Assembly (NCBI GenBank): GCA_010093605.1
Contig: MU004196.1
Location: forward strand, 456,606-520,605
DNA length: 64,000 nucleotides
Source: Lophium mytilinum
Lineage: Eukaryota
Direction of reading: 5' to 3'
Part shown: piece after piece, positions 1-30,207 of the stretch
Layout: each line of letters starts with the position of its first letter
How positions within the stretch are numbered: the stretch's first letter is position 1
Made by a program: the position numbers and the translations under genes
The notes under the pieces: generated by a model
Seen by the model: the letters and a program-made list of their open reading frames with translations, nothing else
What the model was told of the DNA's origin: nothing
Database searches by the model: none

Positions 1-3000
1 AGGCCATTCACCTCAAATACGCAGAGCGCTACTAGCTGTGCCTTGTTGGCGATGTCGCCTAGCATTACGACGACATCTATGACCAAGCCAGTTCGCCTGA
101 TGGCATGCTCGATCTCACCAAGCTCAATTCGATGGCCATTAATCTTGACTTGATGATCTTTGCGGCCGAGACACTCGAGCTCGCCTCCCGGAAGCCATCG
201 TGCCAGGTCGCCCGTTCGGTAGATGCGGACACCAAGCGCCATGCTGTCCTTGAACACGGCCGCCGTAAGGTCGTCGCGGTTCATGTAGCCAGCGGTGACT
301 TGCGGCCCTGCGATACACAACTCTCCCGACGCCCCGTACGGTTGTAGCTCCTCGCCATCCGGGTCGACAATGAATGCCATGACGGTCGGGAATGGTGCGC
401 CGATGTTCGTAACTCGGCTTTCCTCAACGACTGCCTTGGCCGTGACCAATATTGACGTCTCTGTAGGTCCATATAGGTTTAGTATCTGGCACCGGGACCG
501 CCATGCCTCGAGCACGCTGTGCGTGAGAGGCTCTCCGCCTGACAAGAGCTTCTCAAAAGTAGGTACCTGCTCTGGTCGGAAAAGGTTTGCAACCGTAGGC
601 GTAAGCAGTGCCTTCTGGACACGCATGGCGTTGATGCGGGAAGCGATATCGGACATCAAACGCTCCATGGGCGCCATGCAGAGTGTGCCACCTGTGCTGA
701 GAGTCGTGAAAATGTCCAGCACCGACGCATCAAAGACATAGTTGGAGAACTGTAGCGTCCGCCATCCGCCTTCATGTTGGCCCTCTACATCTGCCATACT
801 CGCTATTGCCGTCGCCACGGCATAATGCGGTACCTTGACGCCTTTCGGTTGGCCTGTACTTCCTGAAGTGTAGATGACATAGGCAAGGTGCTGTGGTGTC
901 GCTGCTACTAAGGGCTTCTCTTTGGGCTTCGACGCGAGTGCTGAGCCTGCACGTTCGAATACTACCGTCTGAACGTCCTTATCATTTGACACAAATTTCG
1001 AATACATTTCATGGAGAATGACGAGGCGCGCGTTACAATTCTGGACGATGAAACGGTTCCGCTCGACAGGATGCTCTGGATTCAACGGGACATAGGCACC
1101 GCCGGCTTTCAACACTCCCAGAATGGACACGATGGTAGCAACCGACTTGTCAAGCATCAGCGCCACGACATCGCCGGCATTCATACTATGTTCTATTAAG
1201 AGATGGGCCAGCTGATTCGCGAGGTTGTTGAGCTCGCCATATGTTACATCTTCCGTGGCGTCCCAGTCGATAGCTATTTTGTTAGGGCTGAGGTTGGCAT
1301 GTCGTTCAAACTCCGCATGAAGCATCTGCGCTTCAGGCGTGTGCAAGGTATGCCTGTTTGAAAGAGCGTCGAATAAGTAATACCTCTCCTTATCACCAAG
1401 GATATCTAGGGTCGAGACTCGCGATTCTGGCTCCTCGAGCATGGCCGTGACGATTTTGACGAACGAGTCGCAGATGAAATTCAGGCGCCTCGATTCCATG
1501 TCGCTTGAGAGCCGGATAGTGGAAGCATTCTTGCCTTCTTCAACTTCGAGGAGCGTGAAGTCAGAGCCCCAGATTGGCCGGTCACCGTGTCTCTTGAAGA
1601 CTTTCTGGGCGTCATCGCTGGCTTCGTTACTGACTAAAATGTTGACGATAGTATCAAAACAACCAGGCTGGAGATGCCCAGCTCGCAGGGCTTCTTGCAT
1701 TCCAACTTGGGAGTGTTTCGCCATGCGAGCAAATCCGGTCATGGATGCCTTCGCTAGCCGAATGAGGGATTGGTTGGCTTCGATCTGGATCCGTTGTGGC
1801 ACAGTCACCATCGTTGGCCCGTCAATGCTATGAACGTCTAGCACTGGAACTTCTCTGCCGGATACGGTGGTAGCGAAGGTGACGTCGCTGATGCCGACAT
1901 GTCGAGAAAGCAATATAGCCCAAGCGGTATAAACGATCGCTCCCAGGGATACGCCCAAGAGCTTCGCCTTCTCCACGAGACTGATACCAAGATCTTTGGA
2001 AATACTAGTGCCTTGCTTTGTCGGGGCAAAATTGAGGCAGCTGTTGTGAGCACCTTGGAGGTATGAGGCCCAAAATTGGCCATCACCGATGCGGTCTCGG
2101 TCAACCAAAGATTTCACGAAGTTCCTGAACTTGGGCCTCCTTGGAATATCCTTTCCCAAATATGCCGCTGCTACATCCTCATACAAGAAGCGATGGGACC
2201 AGAAGTCAAAGAGACTATGGTGCATGGTGACAACGAGATATTTCCCGGAGATGAAGCCCACTCGAAACAGTGGCCCTGATATAGGCAACTCCAATTGGCG
2301 GTCCTTGTCCATGTACTCCTCGAGGGAGCATTGGACTTCGCTCCATGGGAGATCAAGATCGCGCCGCACATACTGGACGAATGACTTTCGATTGGCCACA
2401 AAACCGGTCCTTAGGATATCCCGATCTAAGAAGACCTGTTGGAAGCCCTGTCTCATCCGCGCTGCGTTCATGCCAGCAACATCCCAGACTCGACGGTACG
2501 TGTATATGTCACTTTCTCCGTTTAGCGTGATCAGAAGACCGGCCTGCAGAGAGGTCGCAGGGTATGCGTCTTCCACGATGAGATCTCGCCGGAGGTCACT
2601 AATTACCCCTGATTCCTCGAGCAAAGAGAAAGGTTCAGCATCAGCATGGTCCTTGGAGACAACCCGGGCGGTCAGCGCTACTTCCTCGAGAGACTCGTCA
2701 CTCAGAAAGCTACTAAACTCGACCACGAGACCTTGGCCGCGGAGCTTGGCTACTGCTTGAATGGCGATAATCGAGTTTCCACCCAGCATGAGTAACGAGT
2801 GATGGCGTCTGACGGCGAGGTAATCAATGCCCAGCACATCAGCCCAGGCCTGAGCGATTCGAATCTGTAGGGAGTCTAAAGCTTCTTCCTCCCCTGGACG
2901 CGCCAAAAGCTCTGCAAAGCCAGCAGTTCCAAGTTCGATTGCCACGTTCCGGATCTCGTCAAAGTTGAACTTCCCGCTCGCGGTTGTGGGAATCTTTTCG

Positions 3001-4442
3001 AGCGGCAGCCACAATGTTGGAACCATGTACGCTGGGAGCGCAGCACGCATATGACGTAGCAACAAGGGCACGGCATCGCTCCAGGCAAGTCCGCTTTTGA
3101 GCACAACGGCTGCTACCAGGGCAAGGCGGCCATCCACTGCAGTTCCCACTGAAGCACATGCAACGACGGCAGGGTGCGTTATCAGGACACGGTCGACTTC
3201 GTTGGGGTCAACCTTCTGCCCATTGACCTTGATTTGCAGGTCTAGACGGCCTAACAGCTCCACCGGACCATCATGATCACCGAGCTGCCGTGCCCGGTCT
3301 CCCGTTTTATAGAGCTTACCTTGCCCGAACGGATTATCTACGAACTTCGAGGCGGTGAGCTCGGGCAAATTCAGGTATCCGGCAGCTAATTGACGGCCAG
3401 CCAAGCAGAGTTCACCCGCAACACCAACAGGAGCTAGACGTAGGCTCCCTGGCACCAATATGTAGGCCGTTGTGGTGTCATTTGGAGTACCGACAATGCC
3501 AGGGCTGCTGTCAACTGCGAGCGTACGACCGAAGTTCAACTGCGTGCACTCGCTAAGCCCATACGTGTTTCGTAATTTGACGTTCGAGCTGCCAGCCCAG
3601 ATGCGGACCAATGACTCCGGGATTTGCTCGCCAACGAGGGTGATCAGTCGAACACTAGGTATATCTGCGGGCTTTAGAAGTGTGAGTGCTGACGGCGTGA
3701 TTCCTAGTGCATCGATTCTGTTGCGATTGATAACACCAGCCAAGTCGGTGCTTAGGCTGCTCTTGCTTGCTATTACTAGCGTTCCACCATGGATCAATGT
3801 GGACAGCATTGTCCTCTGTGCGGCTGAGAAGGTGGGATTGTAAAAGAGAAGCCATCGTGAGAGACCAGAAAGAGAATAGTGGACGATCCCAGTCGCGGCG
3901 GCTTCGTGGGTCAACACCGCTCCCTTGGGCTTTCCAGTAGATCCAGAGGTGTAGACGATGTAACACCTATCCCCCGGCGTAACCCTGGCTCGTGTTCGTT
4001 CTTTCTCGGGCACGAACTGAGATGCTGTCACCAGCATATCTTCGATGTTCTTACACATGGGAAACTGATGGCAGTATTTGGCGTCTGCCAGGATAGCTGA
4101 TGGGGCACAGTCCTCCACAACCTGTGAATTCCTCTGCGCTGGGCTGTCTGGATCCAGGATTGTGTAGCATGATCCCGACTTCAAGACGGCTAGGATTGCA
4201 ACGACCAAGTTGGGCGACCGGTCCATGAGGATAGGAACGATCTCTCCTTTTTGGAGGTGGAGTGAGTATGCAAGATTGTCCGAGAGGCTGTCGAGCTTCT
4301 GGAATGTCATAGGATCCATTCCTTCGAACTCAATAGCATTTCGAGAAGGATGGCGGGAAACTGCATCGTCAAAGAGAGCCGTGAGTGTGAGCTCTCGCGC
4401 GTCTAGGAGCGGTTTGTGCTGGACTGCATCTTTGGAGACCAT
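1..4442 (-). CDS. Nonribosomal peptide synthetase, A1-T-C-A2..., runs off the left edge (SidE/FtpA-like architecture)
   Basis: Manual minus-strand translation from ATG at 4442 (MVSKDAVQHK...). A1 motifs YIVYTSGSTGKPKG (~3930-3965) and LYKTGDRAR. T domain LGGNSIIAIQ (~2760-2790). C domain MHHSLFD (~2205-2227). A2 motifs YVIYTSGSTGQPKG (~840-885), NLYGPTE, YRTGDLAR and GRKDHQVKINGHRIELGEIE. Absent from the ORF track, presumably because no stop falls inside the window. Confidence 0.95.
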   Translation of the reverse strand, partial: MVSKDAVQHKPLLDARELTLTALFDDAVSRHPSRNAIEFEGMDPMTFQKLDSLSDNLAYSLHLQKGEIVPILMDRSPNLVVAILAVLKSGSCYTILDPDSPAQRNSQVVEDCAPSAILADAKYCHQFPMCKNIEDMLVTASQFVPEKERTRARVTPGDRCYIVYTSGSTGKPKGAVLTHEAAATGIVHYSLSGLSRWLLFYNPTFSAAQRTMLSTLIHGGTLVIASKSSLSTDLAGVINRNRIDALGITPSALTLLKPADIPSVRLITLVGEQIPESLVRIWAGSSNVKLRNTYGLSECTQLNFGRTLAVDSSPGIVGTPNDTTTAYILVPGSLRLAPVGVAGELCLAGRQLAAGYLNLPELTASKFVDNPFGQGKLYKTGDRARQLGDHDGPVELLGRLDLQIKVNGQKVDPNEVDRVLITHPAVVACASVGTAVDGRLALVAAVVLKSGLAWSDAVPLLLRHMRAALPAYMVPTLWLPLEKIPTTASGKFNFDEIRNVAIELGTAGFAELLARPGEEEALDSLQIRIAQAWADVLGIDYLAVRRHHSLLMLGGNSIIAIQAVAKLRGQGLVVEFSSFLSDESLEEVALTARVVSKDHADAEPFSLLEESGVISDLRRDLIVEDAYPATSLQAGLLITLNGESDIYTYRRVWDVAGMNAARMRQGFQQVFLDRDILRTGFVANRKSFVQYVRRDLDLPWSEVQCSLEEYMDKDRQLELPISGPLFRVGFISGKYLVVTMHHSLFDFWSHRFLYEDVAAAYLGKDIPRRPKFRNFVKSLVDRDRIGDGQFWASYLQGAHNSCLNFAPTKQGTSISKDLGISLVEKAKLLGVSLGAIVYTAWAILLSRHVGISDVTFATTVSGREVPVLDVHSIDGPTMVTVPQRIQIEANQSLIRLAKASMTGFARMAKHSQVGMQEALRAGHLQPGCFDTIVNILVSNEASDDAQKVFKRHGDRPIWGSDFTLLEVEEGKNASTIRLSSDMESRRLNFICDSFVKIVTAMLEEPESRVSTLDILGDKERYYLFDALSNRHTLHTPEAQMLHAEFERHANLSPNKIAIDWDATEDVTYGELNNLANQLAHLLIEHSMNAGDVVALMLDKSVATIVSILGVLKAGGAYVPLNPEHPVERNRFIVQNCNARLVILHEMYSKFVSNDKDVQTVVFERAGSALASKPKEKPLVAATPQHLAYVIYTSGSTGQPKGVKVPHYAVATAIASMADVEGQHEGGWRTLQFSNYVFDASVLDIFTTLSTGGTLCMAPMERLMSDIASRINAMRVQKALLTPTVANLFRPEQVPTFEKLLSGGEPLTHSVLEAWRSRCQILNLYGPTETSILVTAKAVVEESRVTNIGAPFPTVMAFIVDPDGEELQPYGASGELCIAGPQVTAGYMNRDDLTAAVFKDSMALGVRIYRTGDLARWLPGGELECLGRKDHQVKINGHRIELGEIEHAIRRTGLVIDVVVMLGDIANKAQLVALCVFEVNG

Positions 4443-5628
4443 ATTTGATGAGCAGCCGCGAAGTGGATGTAAGTGCTTGGGCAATCTCAATGCCGTGGAA
4501 ACGACCAGACTTTATTTAAGTTCAACAAAGAGCAGTTGTTTTGTAAAGAGCAGATGCTGTTCCGGAGTGGCTAGTCAAGACTGTTTGAGGCTGAAACTCC
4601 GCCGTCAAGAATGAGTATTCTTGTGCCGGTTTCAGTTTGTTACAAGAGGAGGAAGACAATTCTACGGAGAAGAGCCCGCAGTGGTGGGGCGAAGCCGGCG
4701 AGGAGTGAGTGTATGAACAAGGAGCAGAAAAGAATGTCGGAAGAGAAAACCTCTTGGTGGGGTTCTTGGTAAGGAAGAAAGCTCAAAGGTTCTGACCCGG
4801 GTTTATATACCGCCAGTGTCGACCGCCAGGATGATGTCCAACAGTTCAGCACTACGTGACTGTCCAGGGCGAGGGAGAGGTGTTCAAGAGGGAGAGGTGT
4901 TCACGCGTGCCCGGGGGCACTTCCGGACCTTCACCGCTACGAATGCCTCGCCCGACGCCTGCCGGGGGAAACCGTTCACCAAGTGCTTATCGATGCCATG
5001 AAGAGGCTCAGCCATTTATTGCCAGCGAGTAGGAGATTCAGCGATAGGTCCTAAAGCTGGCCTCAATTCACTACTTTGTAGCTAAGTGCTCAGGCCCCAA
5101 GCTAGCAGCACAAGGGCCCCTCTCAGAGCGACGAGGGTTAACGCACTGAAAATGGCTATCGTGAGATACAGACTCGCCGCCAAGGTGTGAAGAAGCCTCC
5201 ACCGCTATGATGAGAAGAGCTGCTGTGATAACCCTTCACATAGCCTCTTCTCAATAGATGTGGCCGACGCTAACCTTGCTTAACACAGTTTCCTCCACAC
5301 ACCGACATTTCCAGGGCTCTTTCTCAAGCTTTGACATACGATTGCTATCAATTCACTGCGTAAGCGAGCTTTGCTGTCAAGCCGGACCGGAGCTAACGCC
5401 GCTCCGCGATCACGGCCCTTCTATAAATCCGGCAGCCTACAACCTCACCTCTACTTTCTCTCCACAGAACTCAGTGCCATCCACTGCTCAGTGCACTACT
5501 CTTAGTACCACAGCACCAGCCCACGGTCCATACTACCATCCCTGACGAGTCCCATCACTTTCGGCCTCCACCTCTTTCGTTAGGTCTATCAGTAAAGCAG
5601 GCTCGCCCAAGCTCGAAGGGTATACAAT

Positions 5629-8950: not shown

Positions 8951-9343
8951 GGAGTATTCGTACGAAATCTGGTCGTGTGCGTGACTGCTGGAGGGCGACT
9001 AGAGGAGTTCGCGAGGTGTGTGTGGTGACGAAGTTGCATTTCAAGACGTAGATATGTGGCATTGGTGTGGTGTGGGACCCAAGAAGCGCTGAGATATGGA
9101 TGAGCCATAGAAGCACCCAAGGTTCGGAGATGCGCTAGCATTCTCTGTACCAACGATACCAAACCAATGAGAAGGACGAGGTGAGGACGCCGAAACGGCA
9201 CACCCGGTATATTGGAGTCTTGATATTTAACACCGTGATTGAAATAAGGCTCCATCCTACCGGAGAATGAGAGCTGCGCTAAACACAGTGTTGAAGCTGT
9301 GTATGTTCGTACACTTTGCTTCCCCTTTTTCTGGACTCAAGCA

Positions 9344-9619
9344 TACTAATGAAACGGGGGTTAGCGAATCAACTACTAACCTTCGTACGCCCTTCTAATG
9401 CAGTCTAGAATGGGCTTTTAGATCTACTACGGTCACTCTTCATAGAAACTACTAGCTTCGTCTACCACCGCTCAAGGGCCCTTACAGTATTGTCAGCGTT
9501 CCGCATAGCGAAAAGCAAAGCATCTTGGACTAGTAGTAAACTCGCGAGGCTACTCCAGCCAGTGGCGACATGGTGTACGCGGATAGAAGCGTATTCGCTG
9601 CCCCCGGTTTCTAATAGTA
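9344..9619. mobile_element. Candidate MITE (~275 bp, imperfect ~27-bp terminal inverted repeats, TA at both ends)
   Basis: Left end TACTAATGAAACGGGGGTTAGCGAAT versus reverse complement of right end TACTATTAGAAACCGGGGGCAGCGAAT; non-coding interior. Confidence 0.4.
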
Positions 9620-10170
9620 CGTGGAAGCCCGACAAACGATGGTAGCGAAATGTATGGATATCTATGGCAAGCCATTGTAGTTCGTTCGAATTGGGACTAG
9701 TTGCGGTAAAGCTGAGAATCTGCCCACTTGGGTTCTATTATATTGATAGACTTGCTACTAGTATTGACGTCTTCGGTGCTTGCAGCTGTAATCTCCTAGC
9801 TGTTACCTTGCCTTAGAGTTGTGAGGTATCCACAAGAAGGCTTATGTTTGTGTTGGTCGCACTAGTTACGATTACCGAAATCTTGCATCGTCTGGAACCC
9901 ACTCAGAACAAGCATATTAGTGATGGGTTCGCCGTCGCCGCCCCGCCCCGTGGCCTAGAGTCATCAGGAATAAAGTCGAAGCTGCGAAGTCGGAATAGTA
10001 GGGTAGACGATAACGATCAGAATCGAGGCGATTTGCTTTGTGCAGCGATGTGATTGTTGGGAACATCGGTCGAGGAGGTCCCCAGAGTCTGGCTACGCTG
10101 ATTCGCCACTGCTGAGGGTGTGCCCACAAGTTTGGAAAGCGTAAGCGCAATGTCAAGTTCCTAGCAGCGT

Positions 10171-10510
10171 AGATTAGACTGCTTCTTTACTTACTTGTTT
10201 TTGACTAGCTGGGCTACTCCTCTCAGCGGCGTCAAGTGAGCAAGAGTGGAGCCTGTGTAATGATATATCTGCGTGCCCAAATGCATAATTAGGTACAAAG
10301 ACCGGCCACAAGTCTGCGCACATCTGTTTGCCACTGCTTGGTCTTACCTTCACGGGATTCCTAAGATTCATAGGGCATGTCGAATTCTAAGCAGTGTACC
10401 TTAGACTGCATCTTGACTAAATGGCTGTTCAGCAGCCAGTTACCCCATACGGCGGTGTCAAGCGAGCAGTTTTGGAGTCGCACAGTGACAGATTTGTGTG
10501 CCTAGACTTA
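10171..10510 (+). repeat. Two degenerate units of the bipartite box A-N28-box B repeat family
   Basis: attagactgcttctttac(10190)-N28-cctctcagcggcgtcaagtgagcaagagtggagcc (box B at 10219) and ttagactgcatcttgac(10417)-N27-ccatacggcggtgtcaagcgagcag (box B at 10445). Downstream flanks align with the array units at 12993 and 14106. Confidence 0.75.
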
Positions 10511-11087
10511 CCCGGCGCTTTCACCCTCCTCGCAGAGCCCGTCGCATTTGGCTCTACCATATCGATAAAAATACAACCAATAGGAAGCTTCGAGTAATGA
10601 GAGCTGCAGCGAAATGCGTAGGCAGCATATGCCCTATAGGCTTTTCGTAGGCTAGCCTAGCACCGCCTGGAGTCCTGTAGTACATTATAAGAGGTCGGAA
10701 AATGACAATTTTAACAAGACCAAAAGCCTGCGGGCCACTTCAAGCGGTATCAGACTGTCCGAGCGTTGCGCTACGACGGGCCATGGGATAGTCTAGTACT
10801 GGAAAGGTGAATGTGCGATAGCGCCCAAATTATCAGCCCATAAAGCCGAGAGGAGCATTCACTTAAGTGATGGCCTGGCAACGTGAGTGTCAAAGACGGG
10901 CTTACAAAGTTGAACTGGGTGAAAGTACATGACGCACTTGCCTTGTTATATAATCCTCACCCCGGGGAGTGTTGACTCCCTCACAGCACCGAATCATCTT
11001 CCACCAACACCACCACTGTCTCACTACCGCCTCACCCAGCACTGTCTCACTATCACCTCACTCAGCCCGACTACTATCAACCCAGCT

Positions 11088-12662: not shown

Positions 12663-12944
12663 AGAAAGGATCTTGGGCGTAATCCTTCGGTGTCTGCGAT
12701 GGGATAGCAGACGGAGCAGTTCATGCAGAAGCTAGCAGAGACTGAGTAGGAAGGCCACGAGTGAGATGAGGTTCGTGATTTTTCAATTCAGTGTTGTGAG
12801 ATACACGGTTTAATCATAAAGCTGTGAAGCCTAAGCAGTCAAATCAGACTGCCAAGACACTGGTTTGGATAGTCCTGAAAGTCGCTTGGAGTACCCCGAT
12901 ACGCTTTTGAGTATTTAGATACGATATGAAGTCTAACAAATTGA

Positions 12945-14175
12945 GAACTACACTACCTTTTTCCTAAATCAATACTTGCCAATCGGGGCACTCCTTGCAG
13001 TGGCGACGAGCGAGCAAAGGTACAGCCGGAGCAGTGATATATATCGGTGTGCCCCAACTTATAAACTAGTACTAATTGGGATTCTAGCATTTTGAAACAA
13101 CGTATGCGGATATTAGACTGCTTTTGAAGAGGCAGAAACCTACTAACTGGGGTACCCCTTACAGTGGCGCCTCACGAGCAAGACTGAATCCGGCGCAGCG
13201 ATATATGAGTGCGTACAGAGTTCTGAACTAGTACTGATAGGATTTAGGAATCTGGAACGATGTAGCGTCTAACACGGAGGAAATTAGACTAGATTTTGGA
13301 TAGGCAAATACTTGCCAGCTAGGGCACCCCTAACAGTGGTGCATAGCTTCCAAAATGACCCTCTAGGAGGCGTAAAATCTATACATCTACGCTTTGCAAG
13401 GGTATACACGATATAAATAATAATGCTGTTAATATAAGACCACCTCTTGACTGGCCGGCGTTGTGGCAATTGGGAGACTCCTGACAGCGGTATCTAGCTT
13501 CCACAGCGACAGTCCAATAGTCGCGATATCTATGTGAGTAGTCTTTGTAAGGGTATACAAAACAAAAATGTCAACACTATCAATATCAGCCTCCTTCTTG
13601 ACTGTCTAACGCGATGGCAACGGGGGTGCCCCTAACAGTGGTATAGAGATTTCAAATGAGCACTCTACTAGACGCAATGTTTCCATATCTATGCTTCGCA
13701 AAGACAGACACCATCTAAATGACGACCCTATTAATATTAGGTTACCTCTTGACTGCCCGCGGTTATAGCAGCGGGGGCAATCCTAACAGTGGTATAGACC
13801 TTCCAAAATAGCGCACGCGTAGTGATATATTCAAGTATCTCGACTTATATCATAGTGCTATGTTTGCGGAATAGGATACTATGGCTAGCACAGTGAATAT
13901 CAGGCTACCCTTTGACGAAGGAAATACCTTCTAGCTGGGGTACCCCTTACAGCGGTATCTGCTAAGCAAGATTGGAGCCAGAGCCGTAGTATATCTAGGT
14001 AGCCAATACCATCATGGGTTTTACAAACGCAATAGGATGTAAAGGCCATGGCAGTGAATATTGGGCTACCTTTTGACGAAGTAAGTACCTGCTAGCTGGG
14101 GTGTTCCTTACAGTGGTACCTAATAAGCAGGAGTGGAGCTAAAGCAGTGCTATATTCAGGCGCCCGTTATAGTGC
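12945..14175 (+). repeat. Degenerate tandem array of 8 units (151-172 bp) with conserved box A (CTACCTTTTGAC) - 28 nt - box B (CCTWACAGTGG)
   Basis: Box B starts at 12993, 13157, 13329, 13480, 13631, 13782, 13945 and 14106 (periods 164, 172, 151, 151, 151, 163, 161). Box A ends 28 nt before box B in each unit (degenerate in units 1 and 3). GGGGTACCCC palindrome in units 2 and 7. Confidence 0.9.
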
Positions 14176-14597
14176 TTTAGGAATGGCGCACTTCTTGCGG
14201 CCATGATGGTAGAAGGCGCGATGTCGTTATAAGCAAGAAATGTCCGCGATTTCTAGGAATAAACTTCACCCTAGTACATCACATTTTCTACATAGCACTT
14301 CATCAAGAAAAGCTTGTAGGTCTAGAATTGATATTTCAACTAGACCGAACCATCTTGGTGGGCCCAGCACGCGACCTCCCTCTATTAGGAAGGAAGTCTC
14401 CCAGCCCTCGCCCCAAACACCTGTATAATGCCTTGTCGAACACGCAGCTATTAGGCTGCGCGTGACTAACACTATACAGGGCTGAGACGAGGGCTGGTGT
14501 GTGCTGGTTGCATCCCACAAGCCTATATAGTTCTACCCCAGCGCCCCGTGAACCACGCATAGAACAAAGGAAAAAAAAAAGACAAAAGAACACATTT

Positions 14598-17500
14598 CTA
14601 ACCCGCTTTTCGGTACTTATGGCCATGACTGTGCAAGAAAGAGCACTTTGAGTTCTTACAGCTGCTTCCGTTTTTACACTCCCTTTTGGAGTGGTAGTTG
14701 GGACACTGTGGGACTCTACACTCGCCACCCTTCGTACAATATCCTCTCGAATCTGGCGCCGGGAAAGCTCGGCTGATGGAAGAGCCCGTTGGAGTAGGCT
14801 GAGCGGCAGGCTGAGGAGTAGGCGGGGTAGCTGGCCCTGGAGTAGGCGTAGTACTTTGCTTAGCGGCCTCGACGCCATTCATCTCATCGGCCCAAGTAAG
14901 TGGAGGCTTTGTGGTATCCGTCCCACTTGAGGTACTACCACCGACACTCGGGAGCTTGGAGGCCGGTTGAGATGTGCTCGGAGGAGCAGTCTGAGGAGCA
15001 ATCCTTCCTTGCGCAGCATCCCGCAAGAGATGCCCATCTATACCCGGTTTACCAGGATGGTACTTGACGCACATCAGGTCTTGGCAGTGCTTCGCTTCCG
15101 AGATTGTCTCCCCTTTGCTGTCAACACCACAATAATCTTCGCAGTGTCTATTTGGGCAGCCTTTCGAGGTAAGATGGCATTCCCCACCGTTGGTACAGTA
15201 TCCATGTCTATTCGCCCTTGGGAAAGTTATGGTTCCCTCGAATGAAGCAATGCGTTTGCGGCGATTGCTTATCCCTCCATGCATTTCCAGATCTTTCTTG
15301 ATATCTTCGCCGAGCCAATCATGCTTTTGTGCAACGAGGCGGTAGTACTTTGGCTGGTCGTGGAGAAGAAGCTTTTCAAGCTCCTCTGGAGTGAAATCAT
15401 TCACATCCTCTGATTGATCCTTGCTGATAGAAGGGGCGTCACGAGTGGAAGGAGTAGCCGTGGTCATCTTGGGTATTGTGCTGTACTTGCTCTTTCCCAT
15501 TCCACCCTGAATCTTGGGAGCAGTCGTCGCGGTCTTGGCTGTTGTGCTATACTTGGAGATGCCCATTCCACCTTGCTTCTTGTAGTTGTCGTCTTCCGCT
15601 TTCTCCAAAGCCCTGGCTCTAGCGATCTTGTCCTGGGCAGCCTTCATCTTGGCGGTCAAGTGCATTTCTCCAATCGTCTCGTGCTGAACGATCACTGGTT
15701 TATGACTTTCCGCCTCACTCTTGGCAGGCAAATTACGATCTTGCCGCTTTGACTGGCTTAGAGCATCGCCCGGTGCTTCAGATTTGCCGTCGCTGGATTC
15801 AACGGTCTTTATGCTCGACTTAGCTTCCTCATTTGGCTGGAGTATCGCATCGCCCGGCGCTCGAGGCTTGCCGTCGCTCGAGCTTTCTTTGTTCGACTGG
15901 ACCGACTTCATCAAATGGCCGAAGATGTTCTTCACTGGGTTCGGCTTCTCGTTCAGCGGTTTTGGGATCCCGGAGATCTCATTCCTTGGCAAGAAGGGGT
16001 TGGCGATCTGTGAACCAGGGCGCGTCTGCTGGCCAGGTGAAGAGCTAAAGATCCCGGCCGAAAAGGTTGGCTTGAGCCCAGGGCTCGCTGCACCAAACGC
16101 TGGTTTCGGGACATTGGAGAACTCACTCTTGTGGGCGAAGGGGTCGGCCGTGAGTATCTTAGGAGCCGGCGGCTGTCCGAACGAAGGGCTGAACGAAGGG
16201 CTAGATAGCCCGGGTCCGAGCGTGGAGATGGGTTTGGATCTAGAGCCCGGGGAACCGAAGCCGAGTGCAGGTGACCCTGGGGTGAAAGAAGGAGCGGAAG
16301 GTTTGAGATTCGAGGTAGTCGGAGATAGCTTCACTTCGGAGAAAAAGCTTGTTCCTTGCGGTGGTGCTACTAGTGTAACCTTTGTGGAAGGGTTACTTCC
16401 AGATGGCTTCTCGTTTGCGCTAGTCTGCATGCCGGTCTGCTGGCCATTGACAGTCTCTGATGCCGCATGTGACTGTAGTGCTTCGCTCTGTCCGCTGGAT
16501 GACTTGTTGACCTGACCAGCAGCACCAGCGCCTGGTAAGTCCGGCTTGTCATCGTTGGGGGTGTCATCATCATCTCCTCCATCGTCGGCTTGGGAACGAC
16601 GACCGCTGTGTGAAGGAGGTGGTGGAGGCGGCGGGGTCTTGTCAATTTTGCTGTCGGCCTTTCCTGTGGCGTCCTTAGAGTGATCTTCGCCTGCGCCATC
16701 TTTCTCGTCCTTCGGGGTTTGGTCAACACCGTCGCCATCACCATCCTCACCATCCTTATGATCGCCATCGTCACCAATCTTGTTATCCGCGCCATCCGCA
16801 TCATCCTCGTCATCCGCACCATCCTCGTCATTCTCTTCATCCTCGTCCTTCTTGTCCTTCTTGTCCTCCTCGTCCACCTCGTCCTCCTCACGCTCGTCAG
16901 ACGGACTAGCGGCCAGTGCTTGCTCAACGCTAAGAAGGCGCTCATTCAGCACGCTCAAGGCATCGGCAAATTTATCAAACGTAGGTCCCATCGCCTCCTT
17001 AATGAGTGGGCCTAGACTCTCTCGGATCGTTGCTCTCGCGATCTCCTGGGCTTCCTCTTTGGACGTGCAGGAGTCGATCTGTGCTCGTAACTTCCTGATC
17101 ATCTCCGAGCCCTCGACTTGGCCTAGGACACCTACTGTGAACTCTTGGAGGTTGGTAATTGCCGTGTTTAAAGAAGCGAGGGCGATGTTGACGGCTTTCT
17201 GTGCCTCGGAATGGCTGTTCCGCTCCTTCTCCAACTTGGCCTCGACGTCAGTCTTGAGGGAGGTTCTCATGGCATCCAGATCGTCCTGCGTGGCCATGAT
17301 TGTATCGACCGACTTCTTCCATGCATCGGTCCCAAGCATGAAGTCATGAATGCCAGGAATGCAATTCACGTTATTCACGATCCACTTGATCAGGTTGTGA
17401 GAGCTCAAGTCCATTCCGACCACAATCTTCTTGACAGTTTCTGTCATCGCAGCATCGGAGACGCTCGGCCCTGCGTTCGGGGTGGATGTAGCAGTTGCAG

Positions 17501-20712: not shown

Positions 20713-22630
20713 TCACGCAACCACCCCTTTTCCATCAAAGCCCGTAGGTCCGATAAGACCACCTCCAACCTCCTCCCCACTCTCGCTCTCATGAAATCTC
20801 CTCGCCGCCAACTCCCTCTGGCGCTGCTCCCTTTTCCACAGAAACTTAATCACAAACGCCGTCACGATCAACGAGAGACTGAGACACGTAATCGTGATGT
20901 ACCCCTTTTGATACTCCGGCGCATCGACCTGCTGCCACACAATCAGGGGCAGCCATGCCTGCAGCACGTACGCGAATTCGTTCATGGAACCCACGACGAT
21001 GGCGCGCTCTTCGTTGTCATCGGCGCAGATCTCGTGCGCCCAGGACATGCATAGGCCGGAGAGACCGCCGCCGCAGCCGAAGAGGATGAAGCAGGCCCAT
21101 TTCCAGTTCAAAGAGACGTCCCAGATTGCCAGGGAGACGGCACACATAATGTTAACACACTAATCATTCCAAGGCTGTTAGACTGGTTCTAGAATATGAA
21201 GATATAGGATGGGAGCACGTACACCACCGAAAACGATCGGAGGCCAGCGGCTGCCTTTCAGGAATGAGTCAGAGCTCCAGGCATATATCAACGTTGAAAG
21301 CACTTGCACGGCGTTTGTGATAGTAGGGTAGACGTTGATTTGCGCAACGGTATAGTGAGGATGCTTAGAGGATTTGAGGAATTGAGCGAAGACGGGGGCT
21401 GCGCCGACACCGCCGTTGTTGAAGAAGCTGGGTTTATCGAGTGTGAGTATAGGTGACCGGGATGAGAAAATTGCTGAAAGAGGCTTACATGTAGAGTAGA
21501 ACGAGCGCGTATATATGCCACGAAGTAAAGATCTTCCGAATCTTAGCTTTTGTGTATGGTTGGCGCTTTGCTCGTCCTTCGAGATCCATTCGTTTGACCG
21601 CTAGTGCGACTTCCTGTCCGTTTTGTCAGCGTAAATGGACGAAATAGGTAGTTACCGATGAGTGTATTTGTTTACCTTCTTGGTTAAGTACCACGGTCTT
21701 GAGATCTCTGGCACATCCGGTAGAACAAAGTAGCCTGCGATTGCGACGGGAAGGGAGATTATTCCATCAACAATGAAAAGCCTAAGTTCGTCAGCTACGA
21801 CTTGAGAGCTTACCGAGGAAAAAGACTTACCATTGCCACCCCTTAAACCCACCTCTTCCGTTAAGCTTGTACACCGCGGCCATCAAGTACCCCGAAAACA
21901 TGCTTCCGAGCGCAGAGCTCGTATGGAAGATACAAGAACGCTTCGCCAATTCGTCTTTGCGGTACCACGAGCCGATGATGTATTGCATTCCGGGGTAAAA
22001 CGTGCTTTCGGCTAGACCCACGAAGAAACGGAGAATATAAATAGTCTTCGCTGATTCTGCGCGACATAGTGAGAAAGTGAGCACGGCCCAGATCACTTCC
22101 ATGGTCGGAATCCATAAGGAAGGACGATACTTGGTGAGGATGATGTTACTGGGAATTTCTCCGAGGACGTAGCCAACTGTCCAGCAGGTTTGCATGTAGT
22201 TGAGCTGGTTTCCGTATAGACCGAGGTCTTCTTTCCTGTGCTGAGTGTTAGCATGGCGACGATAGCATTCGATCGGTTTGTTAACGTGAACCTACATGCC
22301 CGAAACGAATGCGCTATTGATGTTAATTTGATCCAGGTATTTGATGAAATACCCTGTAGCTCGTTAGTCCAAGTAAGAGGAGACCACATAGAGCGAAGAC
22401 AAGGGTGGTGTACCAAGACTAGCGAATGTCAAAATCGCTGCGTCAAGCTTAAACATGAACCATCTCTCCTCCTTTGGCTTATCAAGGGTATCCCAAACAT
22501 AATGCGTCCACTTCTTAGGTTTCTCCTCCAACAGCTCATCCGCATGCTGGCGGCGAGTCTCTTCCTCAGACGTCAACGACGAAGCACCGCCCCCTCTCGC
22601 TTCCGCTTCCGTGATACTCGGCACTCCCAT
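20713..22630 (-). CDS. MFS transporter, anion:cation symporter/allantoate permease family (Fen2/Seo1/Liz1-like), multi-exon
   Basis: WDTLDKPKEERWFMFKLDAAILTFASLG, YFIKYLDQININ, GYVLGEIPSN, LAESTFYPGMQYIIGSWYRKDELAKRS, GGFKGWQW|LFIVDGIISLP, SWAHEICADDNEERA; several GT-AG introns. Confidence 0.92.
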
Positions 22631-23490: not shown

Positions 23491-25244
23491 CTATTGACAC
23501 GTCGAAACAAGTTTTCCGGGCGCGTCTGCTTGCCCCGGACCAGGCGCAAAGAGCTTCTGCATCCTCTGGACTAGCTCCTTCCTCTTGACATGCCAGTTGT
23601 CTGTATGTCCTGCCAGAGGCTCCAAACCCTTTTTCTCTAGCTGCGGATTGATCCAAGCCAGCAGCTCGTTCACATACTCCACCTCACGTTCTTTCAGACT
23701 GTGAAACGGCTTCCCGTACCCCTTCTCTTCCACGCGCTTTCTGTACTCCTCTTTCATCTCGCTCTCGGTAGGGAGCGATGCTTTTCCGCTAAGAACCTGT
23801 GCGAGAACCATAGCCTGGAATTCGAAAAGTGTGAAGGTGGCGGTGAAGTAAGGCACCCCAATGAAAGCTAGAGTGGGCTGAGGGATATAGAAGATGTCTT
23901 TGTGGAGATTGTGGTACTGCGTTCCGTCCGTTACCAGCGTGCGATCGTCAGCTCGTTCGGGGTCGATGTCTGCATGTAGTTGGGCAAGGAAAGGCAAGGC
24001 GACATGGTATCCGGTACAGAGGATTACCCTGTGGATGTCGCAAAGCTTCGTACCATCTTTGAGCGTTACAGTCCCTGGAATGGCCTCGTTTGCTGAAATG
24101 TTAGTTGATGTATCGCCTTCTGGAATGGCAAAAGACTCGATTTCGCTGACACGGACGCCATTTTCGGGGAGCATGGTTCCCGGAAGGTCGAACTTCCCAT
24201 TCCGATGTACTTGGTAAATGTTTTTCGCTATAGGACCTATCTCTCGGGAGATATCTGTCGATGAGACCCCTGCGCCTATTAGGAGGACGTTCTACATCGC
24301 AAAGTTAGCCGACAAGTAGCAAAGAGCCTAGTAAGATTCGAGTCAGCCTACCTTGTCTTTGAAGTCTTCTGGCTTTCTATATCTTTTCGAATGCTCTACG
24401 CGATCTGGCCAGCGACGTTTCCACTCCGAAAGGCCCGGAATATCAGGCACTCGAGGAGTGTGGTAATGGCCAGATGCGACTATTACGCTGTCGTACTCCT
24501 AATTCTCTTGTGAGGAAAATTCCCGATGAACTTCGAATTACTTACCGAAACCGTCCTTTCTAACGCAATGCCCGTGCCTGCTTGAGCTTTCTGCAGCGTG
24601 CTTGTCTCCACGATCCACTTTCCGTTGCTTTCTTTGACACTTCGGACCTCGGTGTTGAGTTTGATAAGACTGTCGACTCCATTTTGCCTAGCAACGTCCT
24701 GGATGTAATCGCCTAGGACCTTGTGACTGACGAAATCGGGAGTGCCTGAGGGGAACGCGGTGAGGGTCGTCTCCAACAGCGGAGTAGAGACATTATTCGT
24801 TAGCCCGTCGTAGCAAGGTCTTTACTAGGCTCATTGATTTAGTACTTGTATCAGCAACTTTAAAATATGCTCTGGACTTACCCAGGCGGCGCGTGTTGGA
24901 GCAAACGATGCTCGTCTTCGGACTGGTAATCGCTTTCGGAACCATCGTGATCGGAGCCACTGTTCTCAGACCCTCCGCCATCTGCATCAACTGGGTGGTG
25001 ATCGAGAGGTTTTTCCGCTGGATAGGTTGGCTCTAGCGGTTGCCTGGGGTCATATATCCTATGAATTGTTTAGCAGCTGTGCATGAGTTCGGAGCTGTCG
25101 CACATCTCACCATACGCCTCCAGCTTGTGCTGATCTTTCAAAGACGACGACGTCTAGTCCTTCATTCTTCAAATGAGCAGCTGTTACTACTCCACTAATC
25201 CCGGCACCAATCACCGCAACGCGCTTAACGGATGATGTAGGCAT
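23491..25244 (-). CDS. Flavin-containing monooxygenase (FMO; thiol-specific Fmo1-like), multi-exon
   Basis: KRVAVIGAGISG (FAD-binding), FERSAQAGGVW, VASGHYHTPRVP, EHSKRYRKP (FMO fingerprint), VLLIGAGVS (NADPH-binding), ILCTGY. Confidence 0.92.
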
Positions 25245-25927: not shown

Positions 25928-27399
25928 ATGGCCCCAATCGCCATCCCCATCCACCCCTCAATAAAGGAGGCCGACACCGTTCAACCGAAAAAAGACACCC
26001 TCGGCCTCCCCGAGGCAGCTCGCGCTCGTCTCGAGAAAGCAGGCATTGACCTCTCAAATGGCTATCCCTATCGCCCCGCCAAACCATTATACATCGATGA
26101 CGTCTATAAGATCCGCAACGAGGACCGCCCCTTCACGGACCCAGGATCCCGTGCTGACCCAGAAAAGAAGGCTCTCCTCTCGGCCGCGAAGGAAGTGAAG
26201 CACCTAACCGCGCACATCGGCACCGAGATCGTGGGACTGCAGCTCAAAGATCTCACCGATCAGCAGAAAGATGAGTTAGGACTTCTGATCGCGGAGAGGA
26301 GCGTTGTTTTCTTCCGCGATCAGGATCTCTCGCCGCAAGACCAAAAGAAGCTGGGAGAGTACTATGGGGAGATTGAAGTGCATCCCCAGGTCCCTACGGT
26401 TCCGGGCCTGCCCGGTGTGACTGTGCTCTGGCCAGCACTTCAGGCACAGGAGTTCCCTGCGAACTTTAGGAACCCGGGTGGTGCGAGTCGCTGGCATACG
26501 GATCTTGTGCATGAGCGACAGCCGGCGGGCGTGACGCATTTGCACAACGATACCATTCCGAGTATTGGAGGGGACACGCTCTGGGCGTCTGGTAAGTCTA
26601 GTCTCGACGAAACTCTGAACTGGAGAGAAAGGAGATCCTAATCTCTGTGATATAGGCTATTCGGCATATGAGAAATTGTCGCCCGACTTCCGAAAGATTA
26701 TCGATGGTAAGGAGGCGGTGTATCGCAGTGCGCATCCGTACCTCGACCGGGACAACCTCACCGCCGGTCCAAAGTTCATTGAGCGTACCCATCCACTCGT
26801 GCGTGTGCATCCCGCTACCGGCTGGAAAGCGCTTTGGGTCAACCGCGCCAGTACGTAAGCTCCCGATAAAGATGAAAACTTTCCCAGCAATTTGTTTGTT
26901 TGAAAAACTACTCAGGGAGTATTCCGAGACAACCCTAGTGGTGTCTTGAAATCGCCCGAAGAAGTGTCTTACGCAACAGTTGTCACAAGGAATCGACATT
27001 GTTTTCCTCATTCTGGTTCTGAAAGATTTGCTAACTTTATTGCCACCTTAAGTGACGTTGAGGATCGTTGGACTTGACAAGGCGGAGAGCGATGTGATTT
27101 TGAACTATCTATATGATGTTTATGAGAAGAATGTGGACATTCAGGTGCGATTCAAGTGGACGCCGAGGACGTCCGCTCTATGGGACAATAGGTGAGCTTA
27201 TCTGATTCTACCTGAATTTGGACTTCAAGGATAGATGCTAATCGAGAGTAGGATTACGATCCACAACGCCAGCTGGGACTACGAAGGAAAGGAGCCGAGA
27301 CATGGAACGAGAGTTACTTCGCTGGCGGAAAAGCCATATTTCGATGCGAAGGCGCCGACCAGGAGGCAGGCTTTGGGATTGGCGGGACCGGAGGAGTGA
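25928..27399 (+). CDS. TauD/TfdA-family alpha-ketoglutarate-dependent (sulfonate/taurine) dioxygenase
   Basis: IGTEIVGLQL, RSVVFFRDQ, WHTDLVHE (HxD), GGDTLWASG|Y, HPLVRVHPATGWKALWVN, WDNR|ITIH; introns ~26592-26656, 26851-27052 and ~27192-27251. Confidence 0.95.
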
Positions 27400-27893: not shown

Positions 27894-28460
27894 TTAAAAG
27901 CCATTCACGGGTTGGACACTCCGAATCGTTTCAGGGCGGGCTTCGGGGATGCTGAGAACCTCTATGTCTGTCTGCTGAGGAAGACGCGCGCGAGCGAAGA
28001 CTTCCTTCGCATACTTCTTCCGTCCCGCGCTTTCCGCAATCCACTCAGGTTTGTGTCCTTCGACAAGTTCTGCTCCAACCTTCTTCCCATCACGGTTCAG
28101 CCAGCTGACGATCTCATTCACATATGGCACCTCCTCATCTCCAAGCTCGTGCAGCGATCTACCCAGCCCCTTTCTCAATACTCGATGGGCATACTCCGCT
28201 CTCATGTCTGTCTCCTTTGGGAGTCCTGCACTTCCAGCAAATACGGCAGCGACCGCAATAGCCTGGAATTCGAAAAGAGGAAACGTCGATACCGAGTACG
28301 CCGTGCCAACGAATGCGAGACTTGGATCGGGAATGTAAAGTATATCACGGTCCAGGTTATGCAGCTGGCTGCCGTCTTGCGTCACGAGCGCTTTTTCGTC
28401 CGCCTCTTCTAGTGGGACGTTATCTCGATGGTATTCGTCTAAGAAAGGAAGGATCTTTTC
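27894..28460 (-). pseudogene. 5'-truncated FMO paralog (C-terminal fragment only)
   Basis: LPFL...ALVTQDGSQLHNLDRDILYIPDPSLAFVG...FPLFEFQA aligns by eye with the C-terminus of the FMO at 23491-24174. No FAD/NADPH motifs upstream; similarity stops near 28455. Confidence 0.8.
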
Positions 28461-28504: not shown

Positions 28505-28630
28505 TGAGACAAAGTAAGGCATCGATCAGGTTCATCAGCACGGTTTGGCTCGAATCTTGCTCACTCGACATCACTGTAAGGGGCGGCTTGGCCAGTCAAT
28601 AGCTGGCCAGTCAAAAGGTTGTCCATTTTG
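28505..28630 (-). repeat. Solitary inverted copy of the box A-N28-box B repeat
   Basis: Minus strand reads caaaatggacaaCCTTTTGAC tggccagctattgactggccaagccgcc CCTTACAGTG atgtcgagtgagcaagattcgagcc: exact 28-nt spacer and the shared GAGCAAGA..GAGCC tail. Confidence 0.8.
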
Positions 28631-28659
28631 CACGGCTTAGAACTTGACAAGAGCCCTAC

Positions 28660-29403
28660 TCATCGCTTCAAATTCATCAAAGCAACAATCTTGGGCCGCT
28701 TCTCATCCCATTCATCCCAAACAATTGAGTATATAGCGGTGTGCCTCCCCGGTAGTTCTCCTTTCGTGCCATTTCTCTCCTCAAGCGCTTCTACAGGGAG
28801 CACTACTTCACCGCCCGGAAAGACACGATTCCACCTTGCGACACCCTCGAATTCGAATCCCATACGCAGAGCAGCTCTCCGAGACGCAGCGTTCTCCGCG
28901 TGCGTCTTCCACTCCACGCGCCGCAGTCCTAGACCTCCAGCGGGGAGGGGATCGAGCGTATACAAGAGCAAGAGCCCTATCGCATTTGTGGCGACGTGTG
29001 TTCGTTGAAAGGCCGGGGAGATCATTACACCGATCTCTGTGCACGCATTAACCGGGCTTGTGGAAGTCAAAGCTAAAGTGCCGGCGTAGTTGTCTTTGAG
29101 GTCAGATTCCCCCTTTTTAGAAATGACGATCTTATCAAAGACAACGTATATGCATGCTTCGGGTGATGAGCCAAAATGCCTGCCGTAGAATTCTATGAAG
29201 TCTTCTGTGGTGTCCCCGATTGGTAGAGACACGTATGTAAGGAGGCTTGGGTTGGCTTTGATATCTTTCACGAAACGCGTTGCATGAATGGCTGGCTGGC
29301 GAACCGAGAGTGAGTTTGAATCGGCATTCCTTTGGCGAAGAGAGTACACATACATCGAATGGCTCGAGAGCAACGAAATCGTTCTCCAGGCGCTTTTGTT
29401 CAT
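28660..29403 (-). CDS. GNAT acetyltransferase (RimJ/RimL, Acetyltransf_3 type)
   Basis: EIGVMISPAFQRTHVATNAIGLLL, LRRVEWKTHAENAASRRAALRMGFEFEG, RHTAIYSIVWDEW; probable intron ~29300-29352. Confidence 0.9.
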   Translation of the reverse strand: MNKSAWRTISLLSSHSMYVYSLRQRNADSNSLSVRQPAIHATRFVKDIKANPSLLTYVSLPIGDTTEDFIEFYGRHFGSSPEACIYVVFDKIVISKKGESDLKDNYAGTLALTSTSPVNACTEIGVMISPAFQRTHVATNAIGLLLLYTLDPLPAGGLGLRRVEWKTHAENAASRRAALRMGFEFEGVARWNRVFPGGEVVLPVEALEERNGTKGELPGRHTAIYSIVWDEWDEKRPKIVALMNLKR

Positions 29404-30207
29404 AATGGAAGGCCCTTTGGGACATGAAGTAAAGCGTCTATGTCGAAAGTGTTCTTAGTTATGAGAGACTAAAGAAAGATTGATGTGGAAATTTATGATC
29501 CAAATCTTTGTACAATGGAGGCACATAGATTTATAAGCAAAAACACGTGGCTGTCGATCAAGTCTTGGCAAAACTCATGCTCAATATCGCAACTCACTAC
29601 CCGGAATACTGGTCATTAGGCTTTTACTAATGTTGAAATCTACTATAGGAGTACTTCGAAGTAGCCTTTCCACTGTATACCCCCGAGGTGTGATCGTTGA
29701 TGACTCAAAATTACGGTAGAGTGTAGGTCCAATAGCATGAGTACTCGTTCAGATGATGTAGAAACCAGGAGATGGAAGATTGAGTCGTCTGTGCTCTTAT
29801 AGTTAGCTTCAATAGAATCGGGGCCGAGTGTTTGTTGTTTTTGCTACCACATTGTCCCAGCACTCGATCAAGGACGGGCGATTGGTCACTTCCCCTTATT
29901 GTGCTGGCAGGTTGCCCGTAGATTTGAAGCAATTCTGGCCAGAACATTTACACATAGTCGAATATGGGAAACCCCAGCTCTTAGAGCCATCCCCCAGGTG
30001 AGCTTGCAATGTTGAAAGATACAGAGGCATGACATCAAGAATATGGTTAATTCACTCCACAAAGTACTTACGACGCTCAACCATAATTAGTTTATCTACA
30101 GACGTATCTCTGTAATCTTTGCTCCTCCAACTCCTCACACACCACTCTTTCAAATTTCCATAACACCAGAACCTCCACTCCGAAAACACTTATTCGCACC
30201 CCACAGA

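Follow-up and report, generated by a model that had tools for sequence, protein, structure and literature searches.

A diverged tandem array with two conserved boxes belongs to a dispersed, non-coding repeat family in an ascomycete

Alpha satellite keeps the CENP-B box in monomers that are otherwise divergent, and, to our knowledge, few short non-coding elements with defined recognition motifs have been described from filamentous fungi. The closest described systems, as presented in the portions of the sources available to us, include the dispersed 170-bp satellite families of Tribolium euchromatin (PMC4675708), arrays of tandem repeats that arose from transposable elements (reviewed in PMC9659126) together with satellites derived from retrotransposons (PMC7004042), and the introner-like elements of Dothideomycetes and other fungi (PMC3609843, PMC4457414). 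The available portions of the literature on fungal satellites and on Leotiomycete repeats hold no description of a family such as the one reported here, and none of the listed literature matches for its box B 11-mers, judged by titles and within the same available material, looks related to fungal repeats. The family was found in a 64-kb stretch of ascomycete DNA, hereafter called the window, meaning the whole of the stretch that was analysed; one local protein has its best relatives in Leotiomycetes.

A first-pass annotation of the window had described an array of eight strongly diverged units of variable length, each with a box A placed exactly 28 nt before a box B, and had suggested, among other readings, a bipartite site with a spacer of fixed length. 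The array is real. Its eight units lie head-to-tail at 12945-14230 on the + strand, with periods of 164, 172, 151, 151, 151, 163, and 161 nt, none of which is a multiple of 3, and each unit is recovered by nhmmer with an E-value of 1e-29 to 1e-36. The units were aligned with MAFFT, and the main array and its parts are as follows.

12945-13108, + strand: unit 1 (u1), by alignment and nhmmer
13109-13280, + strand: unit 2 (u2), by alignment and nhmmer
13281-13431, + strand: unit 3 (u3), by alignment and nhmmer
13432-13582, + strand: unit 4 (u4), by alignment and nhmmer
13583-13733, + strand: unit 5 (u5), by alignment and nhmmer
13734-13896, + strand: unit 6 (u6), by alignment and nhmmer
13897-14057, + strand: unit 7 (u7), by alignment and nhmmer
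14058-14230, + strand: unit 8 (u8), by alignment and nhmmer
12993-13003, + strand: box B of unit 1, 11 nt
13157, 13329, 13480, 13631, 13782, 13945, and 14106, + strand: starts of box B in units 2-8, 11 nt each
13897-14000, + strand: example of a core, that of unit 7, comprising box A, the 28-nt spacer, box B, and the next 45 nt
12823-12903, + strand: weak candidate for a decayed unit next to the left end of the array (local alignment, z ~2)

Box B was present in all eight array units, and in 8/8 it began 28 nt after box A ended, as the annotation had stated. The degenerate pattern CCTNNCAGYGG matched 10 times in the 64-kb window, compared with 1.05 matches expected, and none of 100 shuffles reached 10. 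Eight of these matches fall in the array units and one in a family copy at 10219, while the last, at 46583 on the - strand, is a chance match surrounded by unrelated sequence. The spacer is fixed in length, but the picture of a bipartite site proved too narrow, since the whole core, which begins with box A and includes the 45 nt after box B, measured 103-104 nt in 8/8 units and was free of large indels. The core alignment contained two single-base gaps, compared with 15 gap runs and all of the large indels in the 72 alignment columns of the tail. Because the fixed length spans the entire core, the constraint on length is not peculiar to the 28-nt spacer. Tandem Repeats Finder did not report the array, as its units have diverged too far for that program. 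Source-DNA contigs of two DNA runs spanned the array without differences, although these runs, possibly made from the sample that was assembled, are not independent of the assembly. At the right edge of the main array, the decayed-unit signal obtained by local alignment was not significant.

The first-pass annotation had missed that the array is not unique and that its unit belongs to a dispersed, multi-copy family. Profiles built from the units and used with nhmmer detected three extra copies in the window with E-values of 1e-9 to 1e-28, those obtained with a profile of the core being 4e-22 to 7e-28. These copies, and a weaker remnant, are listed below.

10167-10287, + strand: first unit of a mini-array (d10171), nhmmer E = 6.6e-28; also seen in direct-repeat families D1, D8, and D12 and by alignment
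10394-10511, + strand: second unit of the mini-array (d10401), nhmmer E = 4.6e-24; 27-nt spacer with a stable hairpin
28520-28633, - strand: solo copy (d28629m), nhmmer E = 4e-22; 28-nt spacer with a stable hairpin
9491-9570, + strand: weak, decayed unit remnant upstream of the mini-array (local alignment, z = 3.4; nhmmer E = 0.22 at 9525-9569)

The window thus holds 11 clear family copies in three places and on both strands (8 + 2 in tandem and 1 solo), all of them intergenic. The mini-array, at 10167-10511 on the + strand, consists of two units with a period of 227 nt, and the spacer in the extra copies is 28 nt in 2/3 and 27 nt in 1/3 (d10401). Source-DNA contigs also joined parts of units in orders that do not occur in the window, with five joints within 13134-13959 and three within 10150-10420, each joint being represented by one contig in X1 and one in X2. 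In addition, five or six contigs matched up to 10245-10253 and then continued with related but different letters. These reordered joints and diverging contigs indicate further family copies at other loci of the source DNA. The family therefore has a non-coding unit arranged head-to-tail and present at several loci, as is characteristic of satellite-like or interspersed tandem repeats, and its dispersal in many copies shifts the odds towards a repeat of that kind. Other short repeat families occur close by, at 10537-10790 and 26851-27052, so that this genome carries small interspersed repeats; the first of these is a highly repeated 250-bp element with inverted ends (pair I23), and it adjoins the mini-array. 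Beyond this genome, 241 million metagenome records were searched with a pattern of 17 bases spanning box A, the G-run, and box B. The 11 pattern loci that were returned are all chance matches, and there the family profile matched the pattern stretch only, with E-values of at least 0.07; the family is not known from any second species.

Two convergent genes have their 3' ends on either side of the main array, which occupies the interval between them, and the mini-array lies upstream of the first of these, the F-box gene, in a 5' or divergent intergenic region. The solo copy begins ~27 nt beyond the stop codon of a gene for a GNAT acetyltransferase, in the sense direction, and ends ~65 nt before a flavin-monooxygenase fragment. 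The genes concerned are given here.

Ending at 12662, + strand: F-box/ankyrin gene to the left of the main array, its 3' end towards the array
Ending at 14598, - strand: CCCH zinc-finger gene of 1507 aa, low-complexity, its 3' end towards the array
28660-29454, - strand: GNAT acetyltransferase open reading frame (Pfam GNAT)
27993-28451, - strand: flavin-monooxygenase fragment, truncated at its 5' end (residues ~239-389 of 404 only)
23494-25244: full monooxygenase paralogue

Pairwise identities among the array units ranged from 0.42 to 0.64, and they bore out the two subfamilies that had been proposed, u1/u2/u7/u8 and u3/u4/u5. Identity was 0.62 for u1 and u2, 0.64 for u7 and u8, and 0.60-0.62 within u3/u4/u5, with other pairs at 0.42-0.59. 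Unit 6 lies between the groups, with identities of 0.47-0.55 to the other seven units and, among these, of 0.53-0.55 to u3-u5 and u7. Conservation within the unit was uneven. In the eight-unit alignment, invariant columns numbered 11/30 in the boxes, 4/28 in the spacer, and 5/79 elsewhere, and the excess in the boxes over the rest (11/30 vs 9/107) was significant (Fisher p = 0.0004). Mean pairwise identity likewise stood at 0.77 in box B and 0.66 in box A but fell to 0.46 across the spacer and 0.34 across the tail. The annotation had argued against uniform, neutral satellite drift, and these results agree with it, the boxes being conserved above the rest and length being constrained around them. 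In the youngest pair, u7/u8, identical positions were 27/31 in the boxes vs 22/28 in the spacer, so that the boxes are not clearly better kept there; the pattern of box conservation may thus reflect constraint on the lineage that seeded the copies and not necessarily on the units of the array.

Considering that the units are only 42-64% identical and that the ratio of transitions to transversions is near 1 (0.92 over all pairs and 0.8-1.3 among close pairs), the repeat family appears to be very old. The array also differs from the window in composition, with a TpA/ApT ratio of 1.25 vs 0.72 and a GC content of 0.45 vs 0.51. This is mildly RIP-like, with borderline indices, and fits repeated DNA in an ascomycete. 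RIP as the main cause of the divergence was rejected on the strength of the transition/transversion ratio of ~1 and of those borderline indices.

Coding signal was sought in the array and not found: no frame in it stays open for more than 72 aa, and when 618 window open reading frames were compared with it by tblastn the best E-value was 0.009, that hit being a nucleotide-level echo of the solo copy. The array is non-coding, as had been claimed. A coding tandem repeat, for example one related to the ankyrin repeats of the neighbour genes, was rejected given the 72-aa limit on frame length and the lack of protein-level similarity. ARAGORN found 0 tRNA genes in the window. Rfam yielded no match in either array at E-values up to 10 and 0 gathering-level matches in the 64 kb, and its sole matches fell beyond the units, one to a c-di-AMP riboswitch (15143-15273, E = 4.3) and the other to ceN68 (9209-9316, E = 0.24). 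This accords with the annotation, which did not recognise the array as a described fungal element. The annotation had also suggested a processed ncRNA array, a reading that no conserved secondary structure stands behind. RNAalifold yielded 4-18 weak pairs only, with energies of -1.1 kcal/mol for the 11 cores, -5.3 kcal/mol for subfamily 2 (4 units), and -2.3 kcal/mol for subfamily 1 together with the dispersed copies (7). Fold z-scores of single copies were mostly +0.5 to -2.6, the extreme among the folds computed being -3.7.

The spacer itself behaved differently from copy to copy. A spacer hairpin more stable than in shuffles occurred in 3/11 copies, namely u6 (p = 0.014), d10401 (p = 0.004; -10.1 kcal/mol), and d28629m (p = 0.006; -12.9 kcal/mol), with a combined p of 0.0018 and with stem sequences that differ among the three. 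The remaining spacers comprised two with marginal hairpins and six with none (n = 11). The two halves of the spacer also paired more strongly with each other inside one copy than across copies (permutation p = 0.03). Different stable hairpins in 3/11 spacers run counter to a site read as double-stranded DNA and are more easily explained by single-stranded nucleic-acid structure. Long-range pairing of box A with the tail or with the segment after box B, on either strand, was unconvincing (permutation p 0.04-0.6). An internal direct repeat, between the unit start and the TATAT region, scored 5.5 compared with 4.8 +/- 1.2 in shuffles and was dropped.

Several familiar classes of small RNA and of RNA-derived element were tried and set aside. 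A box C/D snoRNA cluster was rejected, as the box-C-like heptamer is intact in 1/11 copies and partial in ~3 (by eye), with no terminal stem and no Rfam snoRNA match. For a tRNA-derived SINE, no tRNA gene was predicted, a B-box-like decamer occurs by eye in 1/11 copies, 16 nt downstream, and neither tails nor duplications came to light. Compared by eye with the polymerase III A box, box B agrees with its five final bases only. An LTR with a primer-binding site, an antisense tRNA, H/ACA and hammerhead-like RNAs, and polymerase III transcription each fitted at most a minority of copies when compared by eye with the relevant motifs.

Transcription was approached through sequencing runs. No run listed as RNA contains the array. 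Run X3 resembles RNA of this organism, with patchy cover limited to genes, no mismatches, and one spliced contig (a GT..AG gap of 57 nt), the label 'RNA' for this run being a guess of the tool. X3 gives no cover in the bin 13242-13898; the end bins are covered, at least partly from other loci. One X3 contig carries a family copy from another locus, departing from the window sequence at 14037 and 14077, and has a depth of ~81-82 compared with 2.7-11.5 for the contigs of neighbour genes, contig depth being a poor measure of expression. Since this contig extends more than 255 nt beyond the copy on both sides, it represents a long transcript that contains the copy and not a discrete small RNA. These data hint that some family copies sit in abundant long transcripts.

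The annotation had further proposed a recombinase site in the style of recombination signal sequences (RSS), and the context gave this no support. Among 46 open frames of the window scanned against Pfam, none encoded a transposase, reverse transcriptase, helicase, tyrosine or other recombinase, or any further mobile-element protein. No terminal inverted repeats paired the ends of any unit or of the solo copy, and, where the three extra copies begin and end, inspection by eye revealed neither target-site duplications nor 3' tails. The features of a recombinase or RSS-like site are missing, with no cognate gene among the frames scanned and all sites of the array in direct orientation. A MITE was rejected for want of terminal inverted repeats or a target-site duplication on the units, although the neighbouring element at 10537-10790 does have an inverted pair. 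A Helitron end fits poorly as well, the hairpin being significant in 3/11 copies only and no Rep or helicase gene being found among the frames scanned; by eye, the Helitron 3' tetranucleotide is matched in 4/11 copies. A working intron was rejected since, although motifs resembling a branch point and an acceptor are present, a donor with G at +5 occurs in 0/11 copies and the copies are intergenic.

We tentatively favour, at somewhat less than an even chance, the reading that this is an unclassified satellite-like or transposon-derived repeat family whose boxes are recognised at the DNA level and whose array grew by unequal exchange. The array would then be a single site of an old, non-coding family of repeats restricted to the lineage of this ascomycete. 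The unit is made up of a fixed-length core and a variable-length tail, and the family exists as short tandem arrays and as intergenic solo copies. Such a family would most likely be derived from, or still be, a non-autonomous mobile element. Unequal exchange between units could have grown and reshuffled the array, leaving the blocks of subfamilies and the three equal periods of 151 nt. The boxes might be kept by way of a hypothetical factor that recognises DNA in a sequence-specific manner, either for the spread of the element or through a host protein. Counting against this reading are the missing hallmarks of a mobile element in the frames scanned and at the copy edges inspected by eye, the metagenome search with its chance matches, the u7/u8 comparison, and the hairpins of 3/11 spacers. 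What the data show directly is the anatomy of the unit, its non-coding character, its uneven conservation, the constrained length of its core, and its dispersal in many copies; the growth by unequal exchange, the recognition by a protein, and the mobile origin are what we infer here.

A core of fixed length alternating with a linker of variable length could also be expected if the units were genes, or decayed copies, of an undescribed family of small ncRNAs. On that account, the core would be the RNA and the tail an intergenic spacer, the boxes would be motifs for processing or protein binding, and the variable 28 nt would form a hairpin or a guide-like segment. This is unlikely, although the spacer hairpins of 3/11 copies, far above shuffles (combined p = 0.0018), the stronger pairing of spacer halves within a copy (p = 0.03), and the X3 contig with a family copy (depth ~81-82 vs 2.7-11.5) all argue in its direction. 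The spacers of 8/11 copies are without a significant hairpin, there is no Rfam match, the RNAalifold result is weak, and the z-scores of single copies are mostly unremarkable. Moreover, a core identity of ~50% is low for paralogous RNA genes that show no visible covariation, motifs like box C or box D occur in a minority of copies and a terminal stem was not found by eye, and the X3 contig is a long transcript and not a discrete small RNA. It is rather unlikely that the boxes are instead sites for a host DNA-binding protein, with the arrays acting in cis as boundary, termination, roadblock, or regulatory modules, a reading that recalls the conserved protein box inside otherwise divergent satellite monomers. 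Short boxes conserved at a fixed geometry are what it would predict, and it would suit both the main array, which fills the gap between convergent 3' ends (12662 on the + strand and 14598 on the - strand), and the solo copy ~27 nt past a stop codon in the sense direction. However, the mini-array is placed at a 5' or divergent region and not at 3' ends, and a scatter of copies over many loci is as compatible with a repeat family as with a regulon. Nor is any known fungal binding-site consensus kept across the copies, a comparison with motifs made by eye that does not amount to a test.

The two remaining alternatives tie the units to a particular genetic element. That one specific mobile element uses them for recognition or as its termini, whether as a recombinase or transposase site or as the hairpin end of a rolling-circle element, is close to the annotation's own idea but seems distinctly unlikely. 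The motifs at fixed spacing and the variable palindromes of some copies speak for it. Against it, the window frames scanned included no gene for a recombinase, transposase, or helicase, the array units all point in the same direction with no inverted pair of ends to delimit an element, and the hairpin is absent from 8/11 copies. The solo copy does lie exactly at the truncation of the monooxygenase paralogue, but this is a single association with a breakpoint, and one breakpoint among three loci is anecdotal. It is very improbable that the core is a degenerate spliceosomal intron, either introner-like or part of a duplicated exon-intron module, with box B serving as branch point and acceptor. 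Box B does resemble a pyrimidine run followed by a branch-point-like pentamer and AG, a further AG lies 8-14 nt downstream in every copy, and a real intron of 57 nt at 21443-21499, spliced in the X3 contig, uses the box B pentamer of 5/11 copies (including u2, u7, u8, and d28629m). Against this, a donor with G at +5 is found in 0/11 copies, and 5/11 have no GT there at all; the copies are intergenic, and the sequence between cores is without coding signal. Introner-like elements are multi-copy in some ascomycetes, according to the available portions of the two studies (PMC3609843, PMC4457414), and the portion available of the latter (PMC4457414) makes no mention of tandem intergenic arrays.

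We also considered, as a doubtful reading, that the 104-nt cores serve as functional modules of a type not yet described in filamentous fungi. They might be new small-RNA genes in which the conserved boxes flank a hairpin or guide-like segment of 28 nt, or else arrayed sites at which a site-specific DNA enzyme recognises single-stranded hairpins. If so, the solo copies whose hairpins are intact would be active, and the array would consist of decayed remains.

Should the preferred reading of an unclassified repeat family be true, the array would add one more unclassified family of short repeats to those of fungi and would change no concept, while being useful for repeat annotation and as a marker of intergenic DNA that is prone to rearrangement. 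It would matter more if a host function, or some new RNA or recombination system, lies behind the boxes and the strictly kept length of the core. The 11 copies present here, with more in the genome, constitute a natural set of variants for mapping what is recognised.

Set against the systems described above and some others, the family shares features with each. Like introner-like elements, as far as the available portions of the sources describe them, it is short, multi-copy, and found in an ascomycete, with a motif resembling a branch point and acceptor and with hairpin potential in some copies; unlike them, its copies in the window lie outside genes and in tandem, lack the donor in 11/11 cases, and are far from near-identical. 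With RSS and the ends of Transib elements it has in common two conserved motifs whose spacer is fixed in length but free in sequence, and six bases of box B match the RSS heptamer. However, the spacer here, at 28 nt, has neither of the canonical lengths, no nonamer-like motif occurs in the right orientation, the fixed length covers the 104-nt core, the orientation is direct only, and the window has no RAG-like or Transib-like gene. Tandem clusters of 5S, snRNA, or snoRNA genes resemble the array in that a core of constant length alternates with a variable linker. They differ from it in that the array has no Rfam match, no conserved fold, no tRNA-like pair of polymerase III boxes, and no T-run terminator kept across units, and in that the identity of its cores is too low. 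With tandem arrays derived from transposable elements, to the extent that the available parts of the literature portray them, the unit shares being both dispersed and tandem, being non-coding, and lying near other small repeats, whereas no parent element, terminal repeats, target duplications, or element protein was identified here. The conserved box of alpha satellite differs from those of the array in that the box sequences are unrelated, and there is no evidence here of a bound protein or a centromeric role. The euchromatic satellites of 150-170 bp are set apart by the small number of units in the window (8 + 2 + 1) and by identities of 42-64%, far below those of the usual homogenised satellites, yet they resemble the present family in having monomers near nucleosome length, in forming short arrays scattered through gene-rich DNA, and in keeping their motifs despite divergence.

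Among the repeats that surround the array of eight head-to-tail units, one of ~250 bp with inverted ends was found in many further copies.

10537-10790, repeat of ~250 bp whose ends are inverted (arms at 10530-10544 and 10774-10788)

In the two source-DNA runs (X1 and X2), 9-25 other contigs matched this repeat and depth over it was 6-8 times the single-copy level. In the RNA-like run (X3), 6-13 contigs matched it. It looks like a MITE family, separate from the array unit. A second dispersed short repeat of ~200 bp lies at 26851-27052, with a DNA-run depth ~7 times single copy and several diverged copies. Immediately past the array, an imperfect palindrome occupies 14401-14497 (arms 14401-14415 and 14483-14497), and at least one further diverged copy of it was present among the DNA contigs, as indel variants across 14408-14480.

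The nature of run X3 was indicated by an intron within the window.

21443-21499, intron of 57 nt with GT..AG ends, confirmed by splicing in a contig from run X3

Since this contig was spliced across the intron with zero mismatches, RNA of this organism is present in X3. In the decayed repeat region upstream, a 75-nt stretch (9604-9678) matched, at ≥80%, one or two contigs from the RNA-like run whose depth was ~1250-1790, far above that of every nearby gene. Because the matching contig departs from the window sequence on either side, its source locus is elsewhere.

At L007 1501-1648, a locus from the metagenome scan (a 229-kb contig), the 17-base search pattern of box A, G-run, and box B matched twice, 104 nt apart, and there was no match to the family profile of the unit. 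L007 is probably an unrelated repeat.

Beyond the array, two flavin-monooxygenase sequences lie 3 kb apart.

23494-25244, minus strand, full-length flavin-monooxygenase paralogue
27993-28451, minus strand, 5'-truncated flavin-monooxygenase fragment (residues ~239-389 of 404)

Similarity to a Leotiomycete homologue was higher for the fragment (64%) than for the full copy (50%). Other genes of the window were as follows.

3-4511 (minus strand), 33171-34970 (plus strand), and 61846-62502 (plus strand), NRPS module (adenylation, condensation, and carrier domains), two HET-domain genes, several ankyrin genes, and MFS transporters

Such NRPS, HET, ankyrin, and MFS content is typical for variable, accessory-like regions of ascomycete genomes.
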